A stretch of DNA of 64,000 bases. Origin: a bacterium. GTDB lineage: Bacteria > SAR324 > NAC60-12. The translations under genes and the position numbers were made by a program. This document shows, piece after piece, positions 9,988 through 19,708 of this stretch (position 1 is the first letter of the stretch; each line of letters starts with the position of its first letter). The notes under the pieces are model-generated. The model saw nothing but the letters and a program-made list of their open reading frames with translations, had not been told where the DNA came from and did not search any database. The stretch is from NCBI GenBank assembly GCA_965233585.1, contig CBDDTI010000747.1:992001-1056000 (forward strand), given 5' to 3'.

Positions 9988-12629
9988 GTTTGGTGAAGCA
10001 AGTTTTGCATGAGTTGAGGAGCTTGTTTGAGTGCGGCAGTCAGTTGGTCAGGGTTTTTGATGCCTGCTTGTGCAAAATGAGCTTTTCCACCTCCTTTGCC
10101 ACCAGCTAGCTGAGCGACACAATTTAGGGCAGTTGGTGCTTGAATCTTTTTGGTGAGAGAATCAGAGACGGCACAAATCAAAGCATGCTTGCCTTTCATC
10201 TCTGCAGATAAAAAGACAATACCAGCAGACATCTGGGAACGTAAAGATTCTGCAAGGTCTCGCAAGACGTCTTGGGATTCTACATTGACAGGTTTTGCAA
10301 TGACTTGAACATCTCCAATCATTTGAGCCTCTTGTAAAAATTGCTCAACGTTGCCAAGCGTGAGTTGTTTCTTGAGTTGGACAAGTTGTTTTTCTAAATC
10401 CCGCTTGTCTTGCATGAGTTGCTGTATTTTTGGGGCAATGGCATCGGTTTCTACATTCAACAATGTTCTCACGTGGGCTAGGGTTTGAAACTCTTGACGG
10501 CAATGTGCTTCTGCTTGTTCCCCTGCCACTGCAACAACTCGCCTGACTCCTGCGGCTAAGGCTGTTTCTGACAAGATTCTGAATGCCCCAATGTCCCCAG
10601 TAGATTTGACGTGGCAGCCACCGCATAGTTCCATAGAATGCTCTTTCATCTTGACCACTCTGACAACAGAGCCGTACTTTTCCCCAAATAACGCAATGAC
10701 TCCAGAGTTGATGGCTTGGTCGTACGATTCTTGATAAATCTCTACATGATGGTTTTCATAGATTCGTTTTTTGACAAAGTTTTCCAGTTGTTCTAAGGTG
10801 TGCTGGCTTAATTTTTCGTGGTGTGTGAAGTCAAACCTTAAATAATCAGGGTTAACAACACTGCCTGCTTGATGCACATCTTCTCCAAGTTCTTGACGCA
10901 ATGCCGCATGAAGCAGATGCGTTGCAGTGTGATGCCTTGTTGCAGATGCACGGAGTTTCTGGTCAATGCTAGCCTGCACAGGTTCTTGGTTTGGTGTGTC
11001 TTGACCTTGACATAAGCAGACAATCCAATCTCCTTTTTTTTGAGTGTCTTTGACCTGCCAAATTGCTTGTCCTTGCTTGATGATGCCTTGATCGCCAACT
11101 TGTCCGCCTCCTTCTGGATAAAAAGGGGATTCTTCCAAAACGACTAACCAGTGCTGGTCTTTTTGTTGAACGTAACGTAACACTTTGGTTTGAATCTCAA
11201 AAGTGTCATATCCTACAAATGTTGTGGAGTTTCCTTCCTGAAGCACCTCCCAGACTTCTGAATCTGCTTGAAATTTGTTGGCACTCCGTGAACGTGTGCG
11301 TTGTTCCTCAAGCATGTGTTCAAAACTTGTCTCATCAAGTTCAAGACCTCTTTCTTCACAAAGCAGCCTTGTCATGTCTATCGGGAATCCGTAAGCATCG
11401 TAAAGTTTAAAGGCATGTTCTCCTGATAGTTGAGTTTGCGTGTTTTTGGCAAATGTTTCAAAAACCTCTAGCCCTCTGTCCAGTGTTTTTTCAAAGAGTC
11501 TTTCTTCATACTCAATGGTTCTTCTGATTTCATCTTGCATCTTGTGGAGTTCAGGAAAAGTTTGCCCCATCAAATGCACTAAAGTTGGCACAAGCTGATA
11601 AAGAAAAGGTTTGGTCTGTCCTAGCTTTCTTCCGTAACGTGAGGCACGCCTTAAAATTCTCCTCAACACATAGCCTCGTCCTTCGTTGGAAGGTCTTGCT
11701 CCGTCTGCAATGGCAAATCCTAAAGAACGTAAGTGGTCGCTGATGACGTAAAATGAAATTTCGTGGGGGCTTCCAATCTTGTATGCTATGCCTGTTTGAG
11801 CGGTAATGGATTCAACAATCGGTTGGAATAAGTCTGTATGGTAATTGGAATCTACACCTTGCAAGACACGGCAGAGTCTCTCTAACCCAAGCCCTGTGTC
11901 AACATGCTTGGCTTGTAAAGTCTTGAGCTGTCCTGTTGCCAGACGTTCATATTGAATGAAGACCAGATTCCAGAGTTCTACAAAACGCCAACAGCCATCA
12001 ACATTGACTGCGCATTGGTGTTGCTGGGACAAAGGGCATGTCCCCTCACCTAAATCAATGTGTAATTCAGAACATGGACCGCATGGACCCACATCTCCCA
12101 TCTCCCAGAAATTATTCTTCTTGCCAAATGACAAAACTTGATGAGGTAAGACTGATGTTTCAGAGATCCAAAAGTCTCTTGCTTCTCTGTCTTCCTCTGT
12201 TCCCTCTTTTTGACAACCTGCAAAGTACGTTGCCCAAAGTTTTTCAACAGGCAGACCAAATTTTTGGGTGCAAAGTTCCCAAGCCCATGCGATAGCTTCT
12301 GCTTTGAAGTAATCGCCCAAAGACCAATTCCCAAGCATCTCAAAAAAAGTATGATGGTAATTGTCACGTCCGACATCTTCTAAATCATTATGCTTTCCAC
12401 TGGCACGGATACATTTCTGGGAGTTGACAGCACGGTTGTAGTCCCGTGAACCAGTCCCCAAAAAGACGTCCTTGAATTGATTCATGCCTGCATTGGTAAA
12501 AAGTAGGGTAGGGTCATCAAGGGGGGCAACAGGGGAACTTCTGACGTGGCGATGGTGACGTTGCTCAAAAAAAGAGATAAATTCACTGCGAATGGAATCA
12601 GCAGTGAAAGAGTGGGGTTGGAAGGTCAT
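9984..12629 (-). CDS. alaS: Alanine--tRNA ligase
   Basis: DPTLLFTNAGMNQFK, HHTFFEMLGNWS, HHTATHLLH editing motif, ELCGGCHV, C-terminal GGKGGG. Confidence 0.98.
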   Translation of the reverse strand: MTFQPHSFTADSIRSEFISFFEQRHHRHVRSSPVAPLDDPTLLFTNAGMNQFKDVFLGTGSRDYNRAVNSQKCIRASGKHNDLEDVGRDNYHHTFFEMLGNWSLGDYFKAEAIAWAWELCTQKFGLPVEKLWATYFAGCQKEGTEEDREARDFWISETSVLPHQVLSFGKKNNFWEMGDVGPCGPCSELHIDLGEGTCPLSQQHQCAVNVDGCWRFVELWNLVFIQYERLATGQLKTLQAKHVDTGLGLERLCRVLQGVDSNYHTDLFQPIVESITAQTGIAYKIGSPHEISFYVISDHLRSLGFAIADGARPSNEGRGYVLRRILRRASRYGRKLGQTKPFLYQLVPTLVHLMGQTFPELHKMQDEIRRTIEYEERLFEKTLDRGLEVFETFAKNTQTQLSGEHAFKLYDAYGFPIDMTRLLCEERGLELDETSFEHMLEEQRTRSRSANKFQADSEVWEVLQEGNSTTFVGYDTFEIQTKVLRYVQQKDQHWLVVLEESPFYPEGGGQVGDQGIIKQGQAIWQVKDTQKKGDWIVCLCQGQDTPNQEPVQASIDQKLRASATRHHTATHLLHAALRQELGEDVHQAGSVVNPDYLRFDFTHHEKLSQHTLEQLENFVKKRIYENHHVEIYQESYDQAINSGVIALFGEKYGSVVRVVKMKEHSMELCGGCHVKSTGDIGAFRILSETALAAGVRRVVAVAGEQAEAHCRQEFQTLAHVRTLLNVETDAIAPKIQQLMQDKRDLEKQLVQLKKQLTLGNVEQFLQEAQMIGDVQVIAKPVNVESQDVLRDLAESLRSQMSAGIVFLSAEMKGKHALICAVSDSLTKKIQAPTALNCVAQLAGGKGGGKAHFAQAGIKNPDQLTAALKQAPQLMQNLLHQT

Positions 12630-14857
12630 ACTTGAGTAGGACTCTTGCTTAATTTGTAGGTGTGTTTAGAGTGGCTTTCCAACAGCTTCCAACGAACGAT
12701 TGGAATATCTAAAAGGTGTTCTGCTCTTAAAAAACAGATTTCTGTTTTCTCCTTCGCTTTCGTGTAGTAAGGGTAGGGAATTTCCTTTTCTAACATGTTG
12801 TACTCCCCCCAAAATTCTCTTGCTCTAATCTCTTGGTGTGTTTTGTCAGATGATTTGTCTATGATTTCAACAACACCTTGTCTTAAAAGGTGGACTCCTT
12901 CGGCATATTCGTTGAGCCTCTCACCTGCATTGACGTAGTAAGAATGAAGAGAAAGAGAAAGCTGGTTCTGTACGCTGTATGGAATGGCTTCACAAAACAG
13001 CCATGTACTTTTCAAAAACTCACGATTCCCTGATATACGTAAAATGCTGTCATACAGACCATTTTGTCTGACAAACCGATAATAAACGCGTGAGTGGATT
13101 TCTAAAACCTTCACAGAACTTGCTGCACGGAAGGTGGACTCAAGCGGTACTTCTAAGATTGAGGAAAGCTCGCCCAAAAATGCACCTGCTGAAAAAACAT
13201 TGCCTACGGTGGAGACTTGAATTTGTTCTACATTCCCTGAAAGAATCAAATAAACATATTCTGTCTTGGCGCCTTTTTTTAATAAAATAGACCCTGCATT
13301 GAAGTAGTTGATGCGTCCATTGAGCAAAGTTTCTATCTGATCAACGGCAACGTCAGGAAAATAGGAGTAAAGGCAAGACTCTGCGTAGCGGATATGGTAG
13401 TTGCTTCTGGTAGGGATTAAGACTTCTGTGGTGGCAAACGGGGCTTCTGAACCAATTTCTTTTTCATGGTCAAATAAATCTCGGTTGATATGAGAGAAGA
13501 TAATCTTGTGAGATTCGTCTTCAATAAAGTCATCGGCTGCACCATGAATGAGACCACCCCCAATGTCTATTTTTTTAAGGTCAACATGAGTGAGATAAAG
13601 GCTTTTAATTTTGTCATAAAATTTGTCATAGACATCATCTTTTTCACGGGAGTTATTCGTTTTCTGTTTGTCTAAGATGGTTCTTAATCGTGGCAAAGCG
13701 ATGATGTCTGCCAAGTGAGCGTAAGTGTAGTATTGATTTGCCCAGTGCGCACGGAAGATAAAAAAGCTGGTTTCCACAGGGTGAGGTGAATAGATGGGTT
13801 TGACCTCCAAACCATTGACGTTGTTCCACGAGTCAAAATCTAAATCATGGATTTCAAAGTATCGTGTAAATTCCTTCTCATCGGTGTCAAGTAAGGCACT
13901 GAGCTTCTTCATCACAGAATGCCGAACCATCTTGGTTGCGTAGTATTTGATGCGATGCCCAGACCTCATCAGTGTTGGAATCCCTGCAAAATGGTCATCA
14001 TGGGAGTGCGTGTGAAAAACCCCCTCAACTTCATTGACAGCAATGCCAAGAGCAGTCAGTGAGTAAAGAATGTTGGGACCTGCATCAATCAAATAGATTT
14101 TACCTTGAAACATGACGATACTTCCCATACAAGGACGTTTGACGTCCCAGCCATCTCCTTCGCCTGAATGAATGACCGAAAAGTATTCTCTGTTGACTTC
14201 ATGGTATCCCAGTTGATAGGGGGGTGAGTACGACTCGCCAGACTTTAAGTTGAGGTCTATCTCAACGCTTTCTCCTTGGTAAGAGATTTCAAAGACATTC
14301 AATGCTTTACGTTGAACATGACAGCCTTCTTTTATCTCAGCAGGAGTGTCTCTGTCCACTTTCAAAGTGTCTATCAGACTACTTGCTTCTCTAATTTGAC
14401 CAAATGCAAACTCTAACTTGATCTTCATGTAGATGTCTGCTTGGTTGTCTGCCACCCCTGAATTTTTGATTTCATCTAGGGAGATCAAGCCGTAGTTTCC
14501 GCGATAGATGTAGGCAAGCTGCGATTTGATTTGGCTAGGAGAGCCAATGAGTAAAGGTTTTGACCCATCATTGTTGGGGTGATTTGGCAGGATCATTCCC
14601 TGTCTGTAAAGCATTTGCAAAACGGGAAATTCTGCAAGGTTGGAAAACATACCATTCTGAATCAAGATGTCAGAAAGAAGCACGGCATTTGGACCAGATT
14701 CATAAGTGACTTCTCCTTGATTCCTTTCCACGACGAACCCACAGTTCATCAGATGTTTGACTGAATCAGCAGGACAACCACAGAGGATTCTAAGGTTGAT
14801 TTCAGGAATATGCACCCAATAGACTCCATTCGTTACTCTTGTTTTTTCTATCTTCAT
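12626..14857 (-). CDS. MBL-fold metallohydrolase with C-terminal cyclic-nucleotide-binding domains
   Basis: HTHSHDDH motif, HPVET, LKKIDIGGGLIHG; cNMP-like segments VYLILSG.VE...FLGE and LLRQGVVE...FWGE; likely start MKIEK. Confidence 0.8.
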   Translation of the reverse strand: MKIEKTRVTNGVYWVHIPEINLRILCGCPADSVKHLMNCGFVVERNQGEVTYESGPNAVLLSDILIQNGMFSNLAEFPVLQMLYRQGMILPNHPNNDGSKPLLIGSPSQIKSQLAYIYRGNYGLISLDEIKNSGVADNQADIYMKIKLEFAFGQIREASSLIDTLKVDRDTPAEIKEGCHVQRKALNVFEISYQGESVEIDLNLKSGESYSPPYQLGYHEVNREYFSVIHSGEGDGWDVKRPCMGSIVMFQGKIYLIDAGPNILYSLTALGIAVNEVEGVFHTHSHDDHFAGIPTLMRSGHRIKYYATKMVRHSVMKKLSALLDTDEKEFTRYFEIHDLDFDSWNNVNGLEVKPIYSPHPVETSFFIFRAHWANQYYTYAHLADIIALPRLRTILDKQKTNNSREKDDVYDKFYDKIKSLYLTHVDLKKIDIGGGLIHGAADDFIEDESHKIIFSHINRDLFDHEKEIGSEAPFATTEVLIPTRSNYHIRYAESCLYSYFPDVAVDQIETLLNGRINYFNAGSILLKKGAKTEYVYLILSGNVEQIQVSTVGNVFSAGAFLGELSSILEVPLESTFRAASSVKVLEIHSRVYYRFVRQNGLYDSILRISGNREFLKSTWLFCEAIPYSVQNQLSLSLHSYYVNAGERLNEYAEGVHLLRQGVVEIIDKSSDKTHQEIRAREFWGEYNMLEKEIPYPYYTKAKEKTEICFLRAEHLLDIPIVRWKLLESHSKHTYKLSKSPTQV

Positions 14858-15061
14858 AGACCTATGTGTAGGATTTTGTTGGTTCTCACACTCAAAACGA
14901 AAAGTCTTATAGACTATCATCAATGAAAAAATAAATCAAAGCAATCATAGACTATTATCAGTAATTAGAAAACAAATCAAAAAAGCTATGACTGAATTTC
15001 TCTTTTGTTTTTAAAAGTTATTGGATACAATCGCATAATTTTTGAGCGTTAAACCTAAATT

Positions 15062-15757
15062 ATGTCCACACTGGTTGTCATTCCAACTTACAATGAGAAG
15101 CATAACATTGCTAAGCTGATGACCAATATTTTTGAAAATGTTCCTGACTCCACCGACGTTCTAGTGGTAGATGATTCATCTCCTGACGGAACAGGTGAGT
15201 TTGTGCAAGAACTGGTAAATCAGAATCAAAGGATTCATTTGTTTTCAAGAGAGGGAAAGCAGGGGCTAGCCAGTGCATACATTCTTGGCTTTCAATGGGG
15301 AATCAAGCAAGGGTATGACTATTTGATTCAGATGGATGCAGATTTTTCGCACCACCCCAAGTATTTGCAGGCAATGATCAAGCATCTGCAAAGTTATGAT
15401 TATGTCATTGGTTCTCGTTATGTGAGTGGTGGCGGAGTTGTCGGTTGGGGTTGGGACAGAAAGTTCATCAGCAGAATGGGAAGTTTCTACGCAAGGCATG
15501 TTTTATGTCTGCCAATACAAGATTTTACTGGTGGTTTTAATGGCTGGAATAGTCAAGTCTTAGAAGTCATCGGTTTAGACCAAATCATCTCAAAAGGATA
15601 CTTGTTTCAGATTGAAATGAAGTATCGTGCCTTTCAAAAAGGTTATCGCTTTTTGGAAATTCCTATCATCTTTGAAGATAGGGTCGCTGGTCATTCAAAA
15701 ATGAATCAAGGTATTTTCTGGGAGGCAGTGACCAAGATATGGGATATTAAAAAATAA
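15062..15757 (+). CDS. Polyprenol monophosphomannose synthase-like GT2 glycosyltransferase
   Basis: VVIPTYNE, VVDDSSPDGTG, QMDADFSH.P, IGSRYV.GG, D.TGGF, FQIEMKY, F.DR..G.SKM. Confidence 0.9.
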   Translation: MSTLVVIPTYNEKHNIAKLMTNIFENVPDSTDVLVVDDSSPDGTGEFVQELVNQNQRIHLFSREGKQGLASAYILGFQWGIKQGYDYLIQMDADFSHHPKYLQAMIKHLQSYDYVIGSRYVSGGGVVGWGWDRKFISRMGSFYARHVLCLPIQDFTGGFNGWNSQVLEVIGLDQIISKGYLFQIEMKYRAFQKGYRFLEIPIIFEDRVAGHSKMNQGIFWEAVTKIWDIKK

Positions 15758-15835: not shown

Positions 15836-16252
15836 TTAGTCTAAAAAATCATCTAAATACAAAACATCTATTTCTTCAATAGATTTAAATTGCTTATCAT
15901 TTGTCACGATTGAAGAACAGCCACTTTGTATTGCTGTTGCTATATGAATTGCATCAAAATGTTTGATTCCATACTTTGCTCTGACTTCTGATGATTTAAC
16001 AAGTATATCTCTATTAATTGGAATACTTTCAACTAAAGAATTATAAAAAATCATCTGTATATAAAAGTCTTCCAACTCCTTATTATGATTCATCTTGGGC
16101 TTTACAAGACATTCTGATAAAGTCAACTCACTCGTTGTCACTTGACTACTATTGTTTAGAAAATGATTTGATAAAGTTTGATACTTTTCTATACCTTCCA
16201 CTAAATAAATAAAAATATTTGTATCAAAATACACTCTATTTTGATTTAACAT
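15836..16252 (-). CDS. vapC: PIN-domain (VapC-type) toxin, copy 1
   Basis: YFDTNIFIY, SELTLSE, DAIHIATA, IVTND; conserved acidic PIN residues; overlaps the upstream antitoxin. Confidence 0.9.
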   Translation of the reverse strand: MLNQNRVYFDTNIFIYLVEGIEKYQTLSNHFLNNSSQVTTSELTLSECLVKPKMNHNKELEDFYIQMIFYNSLVESIPINRDILVKSSEVRAKYGIKHFDAIHIATAIQSGCSSIVTNDKQFKSIEEIDVLYLDDFLD

Positions 16253-16518
16253 TCTTCTCTTGAATGACGAATGAAAGTATCTACTTCTTCAGCAGTTTCA
16301 AACTCTCTACAATGTTTTGCAATGCCAAACATTGAACGAAGATCAATAGCGACTTTCTCTCTTGGTTGTATCGTTTGGGGTTCTAAGATGATTTTTCCAT
16401 TTTCAGCTCTTGCTTCCAAAGTATCGCCTTCACTAATTCCAATCTCTTTACGAACTGCAACAGGAATTGTAATTTGACATTTTTGTTTCACTTTGACGTA
16501 TGGCATTGCGTTCTCCAT
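16246..16518 (-). CDS. AbrB/MazE/SpoVT-family antitoxin, copy 1
   Basis: VKVKQKCQITIP..VRK.IGISEGD.LE swapped-hairpin motif directly upstream of a PIN gene. Confidence 0.9.
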   Translation of the reverse strand: MENAMPYVKVKQKCQITIPVAVRKEIGISEGDTLEARAENGKIILEPQTIQPREKVAIDLRSMFGIAKHCREFETAEEVDTFIRHSREEC

Positions 16519-16541
16519 TTTAAGTAAGGGTTAGAAAGTGA

Positions 16542-16573
16542 GATTTTAGCAGATTCAAATTACATTGTGTCAA
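16542..16573 (-). promoter_or_regulatory. Putative sigma70 promoter of the TA operons (identical in the three units)
   Basis: Minus strand TTGACA-19 nt-TAAAAT with an extended -10 TG; repeated at ~17427-17458 and ~18389-18420. Confidence 0.5.
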
Positions 16574-16706
16574 CTTTGTCTTTCTTTTTGTGATTTTGTT
16601 TCTGCTCTTCAGAAAAAGTGCCGAAAAGAATGATTTAGGGCAGGTGGTTTGACTTTGGCCTTTGTTTCTGGAAGGAATCAAGTTGTTTTTCATTTACCTG
16701 ATGATT

Positions 16707-17138
16707 TCAATTTAAAAAATCATCTAAATACAACACGTCTATTTCTTCAATAGATTTGAATTGCCTATCATTCGTCACGATTGAAGAACAACCACTTTGA
16801 ATCGCTGTTGCTATATGAATTGCATCAGGAAGTTTAAAGCTATACTTTGCTTTGATTTCTGATGCTAATATCCATATACCCATATTAGGTTTAACTAACA
16901 ACACATTTTCATTGTCCACAAGAAAATTCAAATAAATTTCTTCTAAAACTTGATCATTTAGCTTTTTAGGCTGAACGAGACACTCTGATATTGTCAATTC
17001 ACTTGTTATAATCTGGTGACCATCTTTGAGTAATGATGAAAAAAATTGATAAATAGAAAATTCATTAATTTCAATTTCTTCTATGACATAAATAAAAATA
17101 TTTGTATCAAAATATATTTTATCGTTCAATGGTTTCAT
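16707..17138 (-). CDS. vapC: PIN-domain (VapC-type) toxin, copy 2
   Basis: YFDTNIFIY, SELTISE, LPDAIHIATA, IVTND; ATGA overlap with the antitoxin. Confidence 0.9.
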   Translation of the reverse strand: MKPLNDKIYFDTNIFIYVIEEIEINEFSIYQFFSSLLKDGHQIITSELTISECLVQPKKLNDQVLEEIYLNFLVDNENVLLVKPNMGIWILASEIKAKYSFKLPDAIHIATAIQSGCSSIVTNDRQFKSIEEIDVLYLDDFLN

Positions 17139-17404
17139 TCATCTCTCAAACTACGGATATGAATATTCACTTCTTTCTGTGTTTTGAAACTTCTGCAATG
17201 CTTACCAGCACCTATCATTTCAAGTAAGTTCGTTTTTTTCTTTTTTCTTGGTTGTATCGTTTGGGGTTCTAATATGATTTTTCCATTTTCAGCTCTTGCT
17301 TCCAATGTATCGCCTTCGCTGATTCCGACCTCTCTGCGAACGGTAGCAGGAATTGTAATTTGACATTTTTGTTTGACTTTGACATATGGCATTGCGTTCT
17401 CCAT
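17135..17404 (-). CDS. AbrB/MazE/SpoVT-family antitoxin, copy 2
   Basis: Same N-terminal 53 aa as the other copies (few substitutions); start MENAMP at 17404 by homology. Confidence 0.9.
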   Translation of the reverse strand: MENAMPYVKVKQKCQITIPATVRREVGISEGDTLEARAENGKIILEPQTIQPRKKKKTNLLEMIGAGKHCRSFKTQKEVNIHIRSLRDE

Positions 17405-17645
17405 TTTAAATAAGGTTAGAAAGTGAGATTTTAGCAGATTCAAATTACATTGTGTCAACTTTGTCTTTCTTTTTGTGATTTTGTTTTTTCTGGTTGAGAA
17501 GTTTCATTCCTTCCCTTGTGGCATAACTGGTTTTGCTAATACACGAGCCAGAAAAGGTGTGAAAAAGAATGATTTAGGGCATGTGGTTTGACTTTGATCT
17601 TTGTTTCTGGAACGAATCTAAATTGTTCTTCATTCACTGATGACG

Positions 17646-18083
17646 TTAGTTTAAAAAATCATCTAAATACAACACACCTACTTCTTGAATAGATTTGAAT
17701 TGTCTATCATTCGTCACGATTGAAGAACAACCACTTTGTATTGCTGTTGCTATATGAATTGTATCAAAAAGTTTAACCTGATAATCTGCTCTAATCTCTG
17801 ACGATTTGATCAAAATTTCTGTACTTATCTGTTGACATTGAACATAGGAATTGAAAAGTATTGCTTGCATATAAACATTTTCTAGGTCTTGGTTTTTATC
17901 TTTTTTAGGTTTAACAAGACACTCTACAATCGTCAAAGTACTAGTCACAATTTGATGATTTCTTCCTTTTAGAACATTAAAAAAATCGCCAGCTAAACTT
18001 TGATATTTTTCTACTCCTTCAAAAACATAGATAAATACATTTGTATCAAAGTATAAAGGTCTATCAAAAAACTTATCTTTCAT
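17646..18083 (-). CDS. vapC: PIN-domain (VapC-type) toxin, copy 3
   Basis: YFDTNVFIY, TIVE, FDTIHIATA, IVTND. Confidence 0.9.
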   Translation of the reverse strand: MKDKFFDRPLYFDTNVFIYVFEGVEKYQSLAGDFFNVLKGRNHQIVTSTLTIVECLVKPKKDKNQDLENVYMQAILFNSYVQCQQISTEILIKSSEIRADYQVKLFDTIHIATAIQSGCSSIVTNDRQFKSIQEVGVLYLDDFLN

Positions 18084-18095
18084 TGAACTTGTCTT

Positions 18096-18365
18096 TCATT
18101 CACTTCTTAGATGACGGACGTATTCATTGATTTCTTCAGCAGTTTCAAAGCTTCTATGTTCTTTTGCTATTCCTAACATAGAATGAAAATCAATAGCGAC
18201 TTTTTCTCTTGGTTGTATCGTTTGGGGTTCTAAGATGATTTTTCCATTTTCAGCTCTTGCTTCCAATGTATCGCCTTCGCTAATTCCGACCTCTCTGCGA
18301 ACGGCAGCAGGAATTGTAATTTGACATTTTTGTTTGACTTTGACGTATGGCATTGCGTTCTCCAT
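18096..18365 (-). CDS. AbrB/MazE/SpoVT-family antitoxin, copy 3
   Basis: QITIPAAVRREVGISEGD motif upstream of a PIN gene. Confidence 0.9.
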   Translation of the reverse strand: MENAMPYVKVKQKCQITIPAAVRREVGISEGDTLEARAENGKIILEPQTIQPREKVAIDFHSMLGIAKEHRSFETAEEINEYVRHLRSE

Positions 18366-18572
18366 TTTAAATAAGGGTTAGAAAGTGAGATTTTAGCAGA
18401 TTCAAATTACATTGTGTCAACTTTGTCTTTCTTTTTATGGATTTTGTTTCTGCTCTTCAGAAAAATTGTTGATTGTTGAAGATGAACAAAAAATTTTTTT
18501 AAAGACAGCATATAAAAGTAGTGAATATAATAAAATTTATAACTTAAATAACTAATTATGAAAGGAGAAGAA

Positions 18573-18851
18573 ATGAAATATTTTGATGAAGAAGAAAAAG
18601 AATTGATTGAATCAATAGAAAATGGAGTCAATCAAGTTGATAGCGTTGCAAATTTAGAGGAAGAGAAGGCGAGGTATCAAGAAATATTTGCAAAAAATTT
18701 TTCTAAAAGGAAGGCAATAAGTTTGCGTATTTTAGAAAGTGATTTGTTTGATTTAAAAAGCCGAGCATTGGAAGAAGGAATACCTTATCAAACATTGATA
18801 AATTCAATTTTGCATAAGTATTTAAAAGGTTCTTTAAATCAAAAAAGCTGA
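18573..18851 (+). CDS. Orphan antitoxin-like protein (CopG/BrnA-type C-terminal RHH)
   Basis: AAGGAG RBS; DEEEKELIES..NG...ISLRI...DL..LK.RA.EEGIPYQTLI.SILHKY; no toxin ORF upstream. Confidence 0.75.
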   Translation: MKYFDEEEKELIESIENGVNQVDSVANLEEEKARYQEIFAKNFSKRKAISLRILESDLFDLKSRALEEGIPYQTLINSILHKYLKGSLNQKS

Positions 18852-18964
18852 TAACACTCAATACACGAGCAAAAAAAGTGCCGAAAAGAATGATTTGCAG
18901 CAGGTTATTTGACTTTGGTCTTTGTTTTGTGAGAGACTAACGGATTTTTCATTAGGAAAACGAT

Positions 18965-19708
18965 ATGATTCAACTCATTGCAGGCAACTGGAAAATGAAT
19001 GGGTCGCGTGCTTTACTTCAGGAGATGGTGGAACGATTAGAAGCATTTGACCCCACAAAAATTCAGATTGCAGTCTGTCCTTCTTTTGTTCATCTCTCTG
19101 ATGCCCTCCAGCTTTTTGAAAAGACTCCTTGGACGATTGGGGCGCAAAATATTTCTGACCAATTATCAGGTGCATTGACGGGTGAGACTTCTGTTTTGAT
19201 GCTCAAAGAATATCTTGTGCAGTTGTGTATTGTGGGGCATTCGGAACGGCGTCAATTTTTTCAAGAAAATGATGTGTTGATTGGCAAAAAAGCCTCGTTG
19301 TTACTGGAACATGGAATCCGTCCCATTATCTGTGTAGGTGAGACATTAGAGCAACGTCAAAACAACGAACATGAAAAAGTTGTCTGTCAGCAGTTAACAG
19401 ATATTTTTGAGCAAATTGCTCAAGACCATGTTGGTCAATGTGTGATTGCTTATGAACCTGTCTGGGCGATTGGAACAGGCAAGACAGCATCTGCACAAGA
19501 TGCCAATGCGATGCACATGGTGGTCAGGCATTTTTTGAAGGAATTGCATGCTCCTGTTGCTGATGCAATACCCTTGCTTTATGGTGGTAGTGTCAACGAA
19601 AGTAACTCTGAAGAATTGATGAAACAACCCCAAATCAATGGTGCATTGGTAGGTGGGGCAAGCCTGAAACCTGATAGCTTTGCCAACTTGATTCAAGCCA
19701 CACTTTAA
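18965..19708 (+). CDS. tpiA: Triosephosphate isomerase
   Basis: AGNWKMN, GHSERR, AYEPVWAIGTG, LYGGSV, GALVGGASL. Confidence 0.98.
   Translation: MIQLIAGNWKMNGSRALLQEMVERLEAFDPTKIQIAVCPSFVHLSDALQLFEKTPWTIGAQNISDQLSGALTGETSVLMLKEYLVQLCIVGHSERRQFFQENDVLIGKKASLLLEHGIRPIICVGETLEQRQNNEHEKVVCQQLTDIFEQIAQDHVGQCVIAYEPVWAIGTGKTASAQDANAMHMVVRHFLKELHAPVADAIPLLYGGSVNESNSEELMKQPQINGALVGGASLKPDSFANLIQATL

Follow-up and report, generated by a model that had tools for sequence, protein, structure and literature searches.

VapBC toxin–antitoxin (TA) systems of the AbrB type, as described for Shigella flexneri (3TND, PMC3384007), Klebsiella (7BY2) and Rickettsia felis (VapBC2, 3ZVK), combine a PIN-fold toxin carrying four acidic residues with an antitoxin encoded upstream, which has an N-terminal SpoVT/AbrB domain of ~45–49 residues followed by a C-terminal tail. 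Here we analysed a stretch of 64,000 nucleotides (positions 992,001 to 1,056,000 of contig CBDDTI010000747.1, assembly GCA_965233585.1; hereafter the window) from a bacterium of the SAR324 lineage NAC60-12, in which a GT2 glycosyltransferase gene and tpiA enclose three intact minus-strand AbrB–PIN (vapBC) units in tandem. The array shares the features of the described systems but differs from them in being a tandem trio with near-identical promoters, and its toxins are only 15–29% identical to the VapC proteins of Shigella, Klebsiella and Rickettsia. We give a probability of roughly 60% to the reading that the variable cores of the three units come from three older lineages and that their shared parts were evened out by homologous recombination between neighbours.

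The esaG/tipC immunity arrays of the firmicute type VII secretion system (T7SS; PMC9484751) are likewise tandem paralogues, with high-identity blocks around a variable toxin-binding part and with homologous recombination between copies. According to the same source they are immunity genes against secreted toxins whose copy number varies by strain, whereas the repeat described here is a whole intracellular TA operon, its variable block spans two genes and it is known from one genome. The cidA–cidB operons of Wolbachia wPip (PMC13439711) are also amplified and diversified toxin–antidote operons, with highly identical flanks proposed to drive recombination, but they act on the insect host, lie in prophage islands and encode unrelated proteins. 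Target recognition domain movement in Type I restriction–modification (R-M) systems (PMC3077401) similarly relocates a specificity block through recombination at conserved flanks; there the block is a domain within one gene with many alleles, whereas in the array it is a two-gene interface block in a single genome. ParD–ParE paralogues (PMC7669267) are type II pairs that do not cross-react at ~41–42% identity, against 41–52% for the array's cores, but they belong to another toxin family, and the passages of that paper bearing on them make no mention of a tandem layout or homogenised arms. Integron and shufflon cassette systems have an adjacent recombinase and fixed crossover sites, whereas the boundaries of the array differ between pairs and no recombinase was recognised. 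A literature search that left most subscription papers and supplements outside its reach returned no tandem array of type II TA units whose arms are homogenised, and the words 'tandem' and 'duplication' are absent from a review of TA cross-interaction (PMC10305079).

The array offers a natural experiment on whether a single repression circuit serves three putatively insulated toxins and whether mixed antitoxin dimers form. The usual view is that paralogous TA systems diverge in their operators as well as in their toxin-binding interfaces, whereas the array combines a near-identical regulatory half with interface halves that are old and distinct. It also suggests a route for the mix-and-match of DNA-binding domains and tails, in which recombination would graft a core that spans two genes. 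These points carry limited weight because the array is known from one genome, other arrays in that genome share its pattern of conserved ends around a divergent middle, and functions are predicted from sequence.

Shared arms and divergent cores of the three units

The six open reading frames (ORFs; antitoxins A1–A3 and toxins T1–T3) are all intact and score above the Pfam cut-offs for PIN (PF01850) or MazE/AbrB (PF04014). T1–T3 reach 64.5–70.9 bits against PF01850 (cut-off 23.6; 3/3 pass), and A1–A3 exceed the cut-offs of both PF04014 and TIGR01439 (3/3). The acidic residues D10, E47, D100 and D119 are invariant in T1–T3, and these positions are at least 90% conserved among 86 relatives. No NCBIfam model scored above its cut-off for T1–T3; the match to NF047863 was far below cut-off, and the tRNA-fMet VapC equivalog gave 25.4 bits versus a cut-off of 140. 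The features of the locus are as follows (aa, amino acids; nt, nucleotides).

15062..15757, plus strand: GT2 glycosyltransferase gene, flank
15836..16252, minus strand: vapC1, PIN toxin T1, 138 aa; core clusters with P0005 and P0004 of other organisms
15957..16359, minus strand: variable core 1, covering the antitoxin tail and toxin helices 1–5
16246..16506, minus strand: vapB1, AbrB antitoxin A1, 86 aa from its likely start; in-frame ATG upstream at 16518
16507..16590, minus strand: putative promoter region 1; TTGACA at 16573–16568, 19 nt, TGC-TAAAAT at 16548–16543
16610..16667, plus strand: tpiA-leader copy in spacer 1, matching the leader at 50/57 positions
16707..17138, minus strand: vapC2, PIN toxin T2, 143 aa; core clusters with the genome's unlinked non-AbrB pairs V5–V7
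16828..17245, minus strand: variable core 2
17135..17392, minus strand: vapB2, AbrB antitoxin A2, 85 aa, with a V-type tail
17393..17479, minus strand: putative promoter region 2; TTGACA at 17458–17453, TAAAAT at 17433–17428
17549..17606, plus strand: tpiA-leader copy in spacer 2, matching the leader at 45/57 positions
17646..18083, minus strand: vapC3, PIN toxin T3, 145 aa; core clusters with the unlinked unit U4
17767..18206, minus strand: variable core 3
18096..18353, minus strand: vapB3, AbrB antitoxin A3, 85 aa; tail nearest P0162 of another organism
18354..18465, minus strand: putative promoter region 3; TTGACA at 18420–18415, TAAAAT at 18395–18390
18475..18546, plus strand: remaining 3' end of a brnT-like toxin gene; 16/24 matches with its intact BrnT-like counterpart next to U4
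18558..18851, plus strand: orphan CopG/BrnA-type antitoxin gene (PF12441)
18870..18927, plus strand: tpiA leader, likely source of the two spacer copies
18965..19708, plus strand: tpiA, flank

A preliminary description of the window had proposed constant parts around a divergent block, and all three constant parts were recovered. Counted from MPYVKV, the AbrB arm is identical at 45/49, 46/49 and 48/49 residues among the three antitoxins, that is, with 4, 3 and 1 substitutions; the promoters agree at 79/81, 80/81 and 80/81 positions (98–99%); and the toxin C-terminal arm (residues 100–137) is 97, 87 and 89% identical among T1–T3. Between these arms, identity is 41, 52 and 46% in the toxin core (residues 8–99) and 16/36, 23/36 and 14/36 in the antitoxin tails. 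The divergent block thus exists, but it is not uniform, with conserved islands near FDTN and TSELT–ECLV. Nor did alignment of the units yield the sharp common boundaries that had been expected, since the 5' edge differs by pair: units 1 and 3 stay alike for ~20–25 nt further (EKVAID) than unit 2.

The structure predicted for T1, the only one of the three toxins modelled, had a pLDDT of 92.2 in AlphaFold, and its top Foldseek matches were VapC chains (TM ~0.7). In this model the core–arm boundary of the toxin coincides with the beginning of helix 6; that of the antitoxin lies at the end of the AbrB domain. In Shigella VapBC, the antitoxin tail (residues 46–67) binds helices 1–4 and the toxin dimerises via helices 4–6 (PMC3384007). 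By analogy, the whole neutralisation interface would lie within the variable core, which holds the antitoxin tail and toxin helices 1–5; the comparison supports the earlier proposal that the variable block is this interface. Across 128 loci from many phyla, one and the same tail motif is joined to AbrB, Phd-like, RHH-like or other N-termini and accompanied by the same PIN subfamily, so that modules of this subfamily naturally meet at the arm–core boundary. Antitoxin and toxin families have been described as pairing in mix-and-match fashion (PMC7354431). Because ParD–ParE paralogues at 41–42% identity are insulated from one another (PMC7669267), insulation would be probable for unit 2, with less certainty for units 1 and 3, whose tails share 23/36 residues.

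In each unit the antitoxin gene lies directly upstream of the toxin gene, with an overlap of 7 nt in unit 1 and 4 nt in unit 2 and a gap of 12 nt in unit 3. At 18083–18100, a short local duplication has shifted the T3 start to 13 nt past the A3 stop, so that unit 3 lacks the gene overlap of units 1 and 2. Every unit has a promoter-like region of the form TTGACA–19 nt–TGC–TAAAAT. A sigma-70 scan did not list the three promoters because it allows spacers of 16–18 nt. Promoter 3 contained no inverted repeat with arms of at least 5 bases within 12 nt; every testable VapBC feature was found in the units, apart from an evident operator palindrome.

The antitoxins probably start at the second ATG (MPYVKV; 16506/17392/18353), four codons after the start assumed in the preliminary description, because the first four codons overlap the GGAG ribosome site and the unlinked copy has CTG there. 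The array antitoxins are called as 85–86 aa in the protein collection, fitting this start, although the longer start is called in two relatives. In the antitoxin subfamily (alignment A5) a terminal Trp is near-invariant, and in the pairs inspected its codon overlaps the toxin ATG; A1–A4, the antitoxins of the genome's four AbrB units, have TGA or TGT in its place. Read-through of the TGA at the antitoxin end was rejected, since this TGA shares bases with the toxin ATG and TGG is the codon used by genes nearby.

Both spacers carry copies of the tpiA leader, 79–88% identical to it and present nowhere else in the genome at E<1e-4, and the repeat unit therefore formerly spanned from the toxin end to just short of tpiA. 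Spacer 2 further contains ~50 nt (17480–17545) without a match of >20 nt elsewhere in the genome.

Silent-site mosaic and ancestry of the cores

As a control for the three tandem units (U1–U3), we used U4, a fourth, unlinked AbrB unit of the genome (C747:170650–171350); the genome also has V5–V7, three intact pairs with the same toxin subfamily and other antitoxin N-termini, plus one truncated pair. Silent differences were counted at codons encoding the same residue, and a max-chi-square permutation test with two breakpoints made the result independent of chosen boundaries. Silent differences were concentrated in the core for U1/U2 (arms 14/81 versus core 21/54, p 0.024), U1/U3 (9/78 versus 26/72, p 0.002) and U2/U3 (7/82 versus 25/58, p 0.004), while U3 and U4 were evenly diverged (24/75 versus 31/83, p 0.86) and U2 versus U4 gave p 0.39. 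The AbrB protein of U4 is identical to those of the array at 45–47/49 residues, so the protein conservation of this arm is ordinary selection. At the DNA level, AbrB silent differences amounted to 15/136 among tandem pairs versus 48/135 with U4, the U4 promoter matched those of the array at 56–57/83 positions (67–69%), and all 23 of the 23 two-state promoter sites separated U4 from the array units. Since promoter and AbrB silent sites are alike only in the tandem copies, the promoter–AbrB arm was homogenised by recombination.

Nei–Gojobori dS, in a computation that took in four extra 5' codons, was 0.13–0.34 in the arms and 1.08–1.74 in the cores of tandem pairs, versus 0.63–0.92 in arms compared with U4. 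Among core site pairings, U3 with U4 was the commonest (30 sites versus 17 and 11), and in a six-site patch U1 matches U4, forming a patchy tract. Pairwise dN/dS in the cores was ~0.3–0.45 with dS near saturation, so that the divergence of the cores reflects their age and not a fast rate of change. We considered positive selection on the core, but these values do not show it.

The toxin-core tree comprised 16 rows, namely 9 of the 23 aligned rows and 7 outgroups, with 7 further outgroup rows omitted. T1 grouped with P0004/P0005 (support 99/98), T3 with T4 of the unlinked unit (86/80) and T2 with V5–V7 (95/92), and a single T1–T3 clade was rejected by the approximately unbiased (AU) test (p 0.0009). 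A joined alignment of tail and core gave the same split and again rejected one clade (AU p 9e-5; 7e-4 under a mixture model), while the toxin-arm tree (38 columns) was without resolution. The A1 tail is nearest P0161 (28/36) and the A3 tail nearest P0162 (29/36), yet the A1 arm is nearer A3 (46/49) than P0161 (41/49). From the equal lengths of their contigs, we infer that P0161 and P0163 are the antitoxin partners of P0005 and P0004. The tail of P0161 is itself composite, with a U4-like start (10/11) and a U1-like rest (21/25). As the tail and toxin core of unit 2 share one outside clade, they probably moved as a pair.

To judge from these alignments, the three cores stem from three older lineages. 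The young junctions and the presence of a V-type core in AbrB arms suggest that cores were imported, and the six-site U1/U4 patch together with the drifting boundary suggests that arms were overwritten piecemeal; probably both happened. The preliminary description had invoked recombination between the constant arms, and the silent-site mosaic and core trees make it well supported that recombination shaped the array. The evidence is weaker for the toxin-tail arm, which is about as conserved in unlinked relatives and hence is kept largely by selection.

Several results weigh against this account. U1 versus U4 gives a mosaic signal as well (p 0.024). The silent differences of the toxin-tail arm, 15/105 among tandem pairs and 21/94 with U4, are not clearly homogenised; the unlinked pairs T4–P0004 and T4–P0005 have 87% arm identity at 48% core identity; and the AbrB arm protein is alike even across organisms (A3 versus P0162, 43/49; A1 versus P0162, 46/49). 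With antitoxin tails alone, a one-clade tree was not rejected (p 0.065), and the place of unit 2 among V5–V7 was not resolved. In addition, 22 of 28 control arrays of the same genome (below) lacked a significant signal of ends more conserved than the middle, and no rearranged or lower-copy form appeared in four sequencing runs, whose contigs drop rare variants.

In the mechanism we propose, the toxin tail, spacer, promoter and AbrB domain would form one continuous block between successive cores, long and similar enough to recombine, in which gene conversion and unequal crossover would act. Crossovers inside the cores would be rare because the cores are too different, and those that occurred would be purged because they mispair one unit's antitoxin tail with another's toxin groove. 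A core would therefore survive or move as a matched pair, and unit 2 resembles such a graft. Each antitoxin is predicted to block mainly its own PIN RNase; all three AbrB domains are predicted to bind all three promoters and may heterodimerise, with the toxins repressed and released together.

Control arrays, relatives and rival explanations

The control set consisted of tandem paralogue arrays on the five largest contigs, excluding pairs with >90% identity or <60 aligned residues. Of 36 arrays 30 were testable, and two of these rows were the vapBC locus itself, leaving 28 others. In six of the 28 the gene ends carried significantly fewer silent differences than the middle (p<0.05; four at p<0.01, uncorrected), with ~1.4 expected. 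One of them, L175 (G000:C747:729684–731877), comprises five tandem DUF29-type genes (four Pfam-scanned) and has an arm–core–arm profile like that of the vapBC array, with 90% versus 58% identity and 39/205 versus 62/175 silent differences at ends versus middle. Because the same pattern recurs in other arrays, junction homogenisation is a recurring habit of this genome, and the mosaic probably arose as a side effect of this genome's tendency to duplicate in tandem rather than as a dedicated means of switching.

In the unitigs of four public runs (two samples of one study, possibly including the source sample), all three cores and both spacers were present with 0 differing letters. Several unitigs cross arm–core junctions, and both flanks are anchored, GT2 with the T1 tail and tpiA with the promoter of unit 3; since unitigs break within the arms, they do not fix the core order. 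Other letters and joints traced in these runs fit the genome's own paralogues (U4, C745 loci) or the tpiA of other organisms. Tandem copies were absent from 87 other genomes of the phylum, and units with shared or constant arms from all 124 loci outside the genome's four AbrB units. Two PIN matches occurred in 3/124 loci, as one frameshifted gene, one distant opposite-strand match and one adjacent pair. The new cores and other copy numbers that the preliminary description anticipated were thus seen neither in the runs nor in these genomes and loci, and metagenome and genome scans returned relatives at ≤46% only. A metagenome contig (L060:3896–5405) carries two adjacent pairs of the subfamily without a shared 100-nt repeat. 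The tpiA loci of 23 relatives keep secG and have no GT2, vapBC or BrnA gene within 1.5 kb, and an ancestral empty site was therefore not seen.

It is possible, but in our judgement unlikely, that the array is a selected cassette-exchange locus, in which the arms serve as landing pads and matched cores circulate among strains or loci and stack here, widening an anti-phage or anti-addiction repertoire governed by a single type of promoter. The V-clade tail and toxin of unit 2 inside AbrB-type arms would fit such exchange, as would the contrast between young-looking junctions (the leader copies) and cores near silent-site saturation, the composite tail of P0161 and the occurrence of the tail family behind varied N-termini. 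However, no recombinase-like ORF was recognised by eye among the 42 ORFs in 10–25 kb (only ORFs near the array were profile-scanned), and 0/7 proteins matched PADLOC at E≤0.01. The shifting boundaries, the identical sequence in two samples, the lack of tandem copies in the phylum and of shared-arm arrays among the loci, the core dN/dS below 1 and the same pattern in unrelated arrays also stand against it. The dedicated cassette design put forward in the preliminary description is unsupported on these grounds, and its constant toxin arm is kept about as well between unlinked relatives, with 87% identity where the cores have 48%. It is correspondingly doubtful that the units form an exchangeable TA repertoire, with matched cores grafted between constant arms and insulated RNases gained, lost or swapped whole under one operator.

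Plain triplication followed by divergence, with arms alike by purifying selection alone and cores drifting or co-evolving faster, would need no recombination, and we hold it improbable. Paralogous TA pairs do arise via operon duplication and become insulated (PMC7669267). The AbrB domain and the DAIHIATA–TND motif are conserved as protein in unlinked relatives, and triplication still explains the toxin-tail arm fairly well. It is largely refuted for the promoter and the AbrB arm, as silent sites and promoter DNA are homogenised in the tandem copies only (15/136 versus 48/135; 98–99% versus 67–69%) and the cores do not form one clade. An assembly or polishing artefact merging similar repeats or joining separate loci is very improbable: none of the unitigs listed reaches across the full array, their breaks lie in the arms and the bin holds much non-bacterial-looking DNA, but unitigs cross the arm–core junctions and both spacers without differences, both flanks are linked, the arms retain copy-specific substitutions and the array lies within a 1.07-Mb contig.

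Other features of the genome and window

About 9.1 of the 12.0 Mb of the assembly lie in 742 smaller contigs, which have 21.5% of their bases in open frames of ≥200 aa versus 75–85% in the five largest and are rich in local repeats. These small contigs probably represent non-bacterial DNA that was binned together with a bacterium of ~3 Mb. As most of them have a non-bacterial look, a count of repeats across the whole assembly (422 clusters) was not taken as the control. Contigs C745–C747 contain further tandem arrays (L176, L177 and others) of CCDC90-like coiled-coil, lipoprotein-like and flagellin-like genes, some with a conserved-ends profile.

A BrnT/BrnA-like pair accompanies the vapBC family three times: intact beside U4 (L007:729–1357), at 18475–18851 of the window, where brnT is reduced to its last 24 codons, and on C745 (L156), where the BrnA-like gene abuts a truncated PIN toxin. 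Elsewhere in the window, the minus strand at 12626–14923 encodes a 765-aa protein with a metallo-beta-lactamase-fold domain and two cNMP-binding domains.

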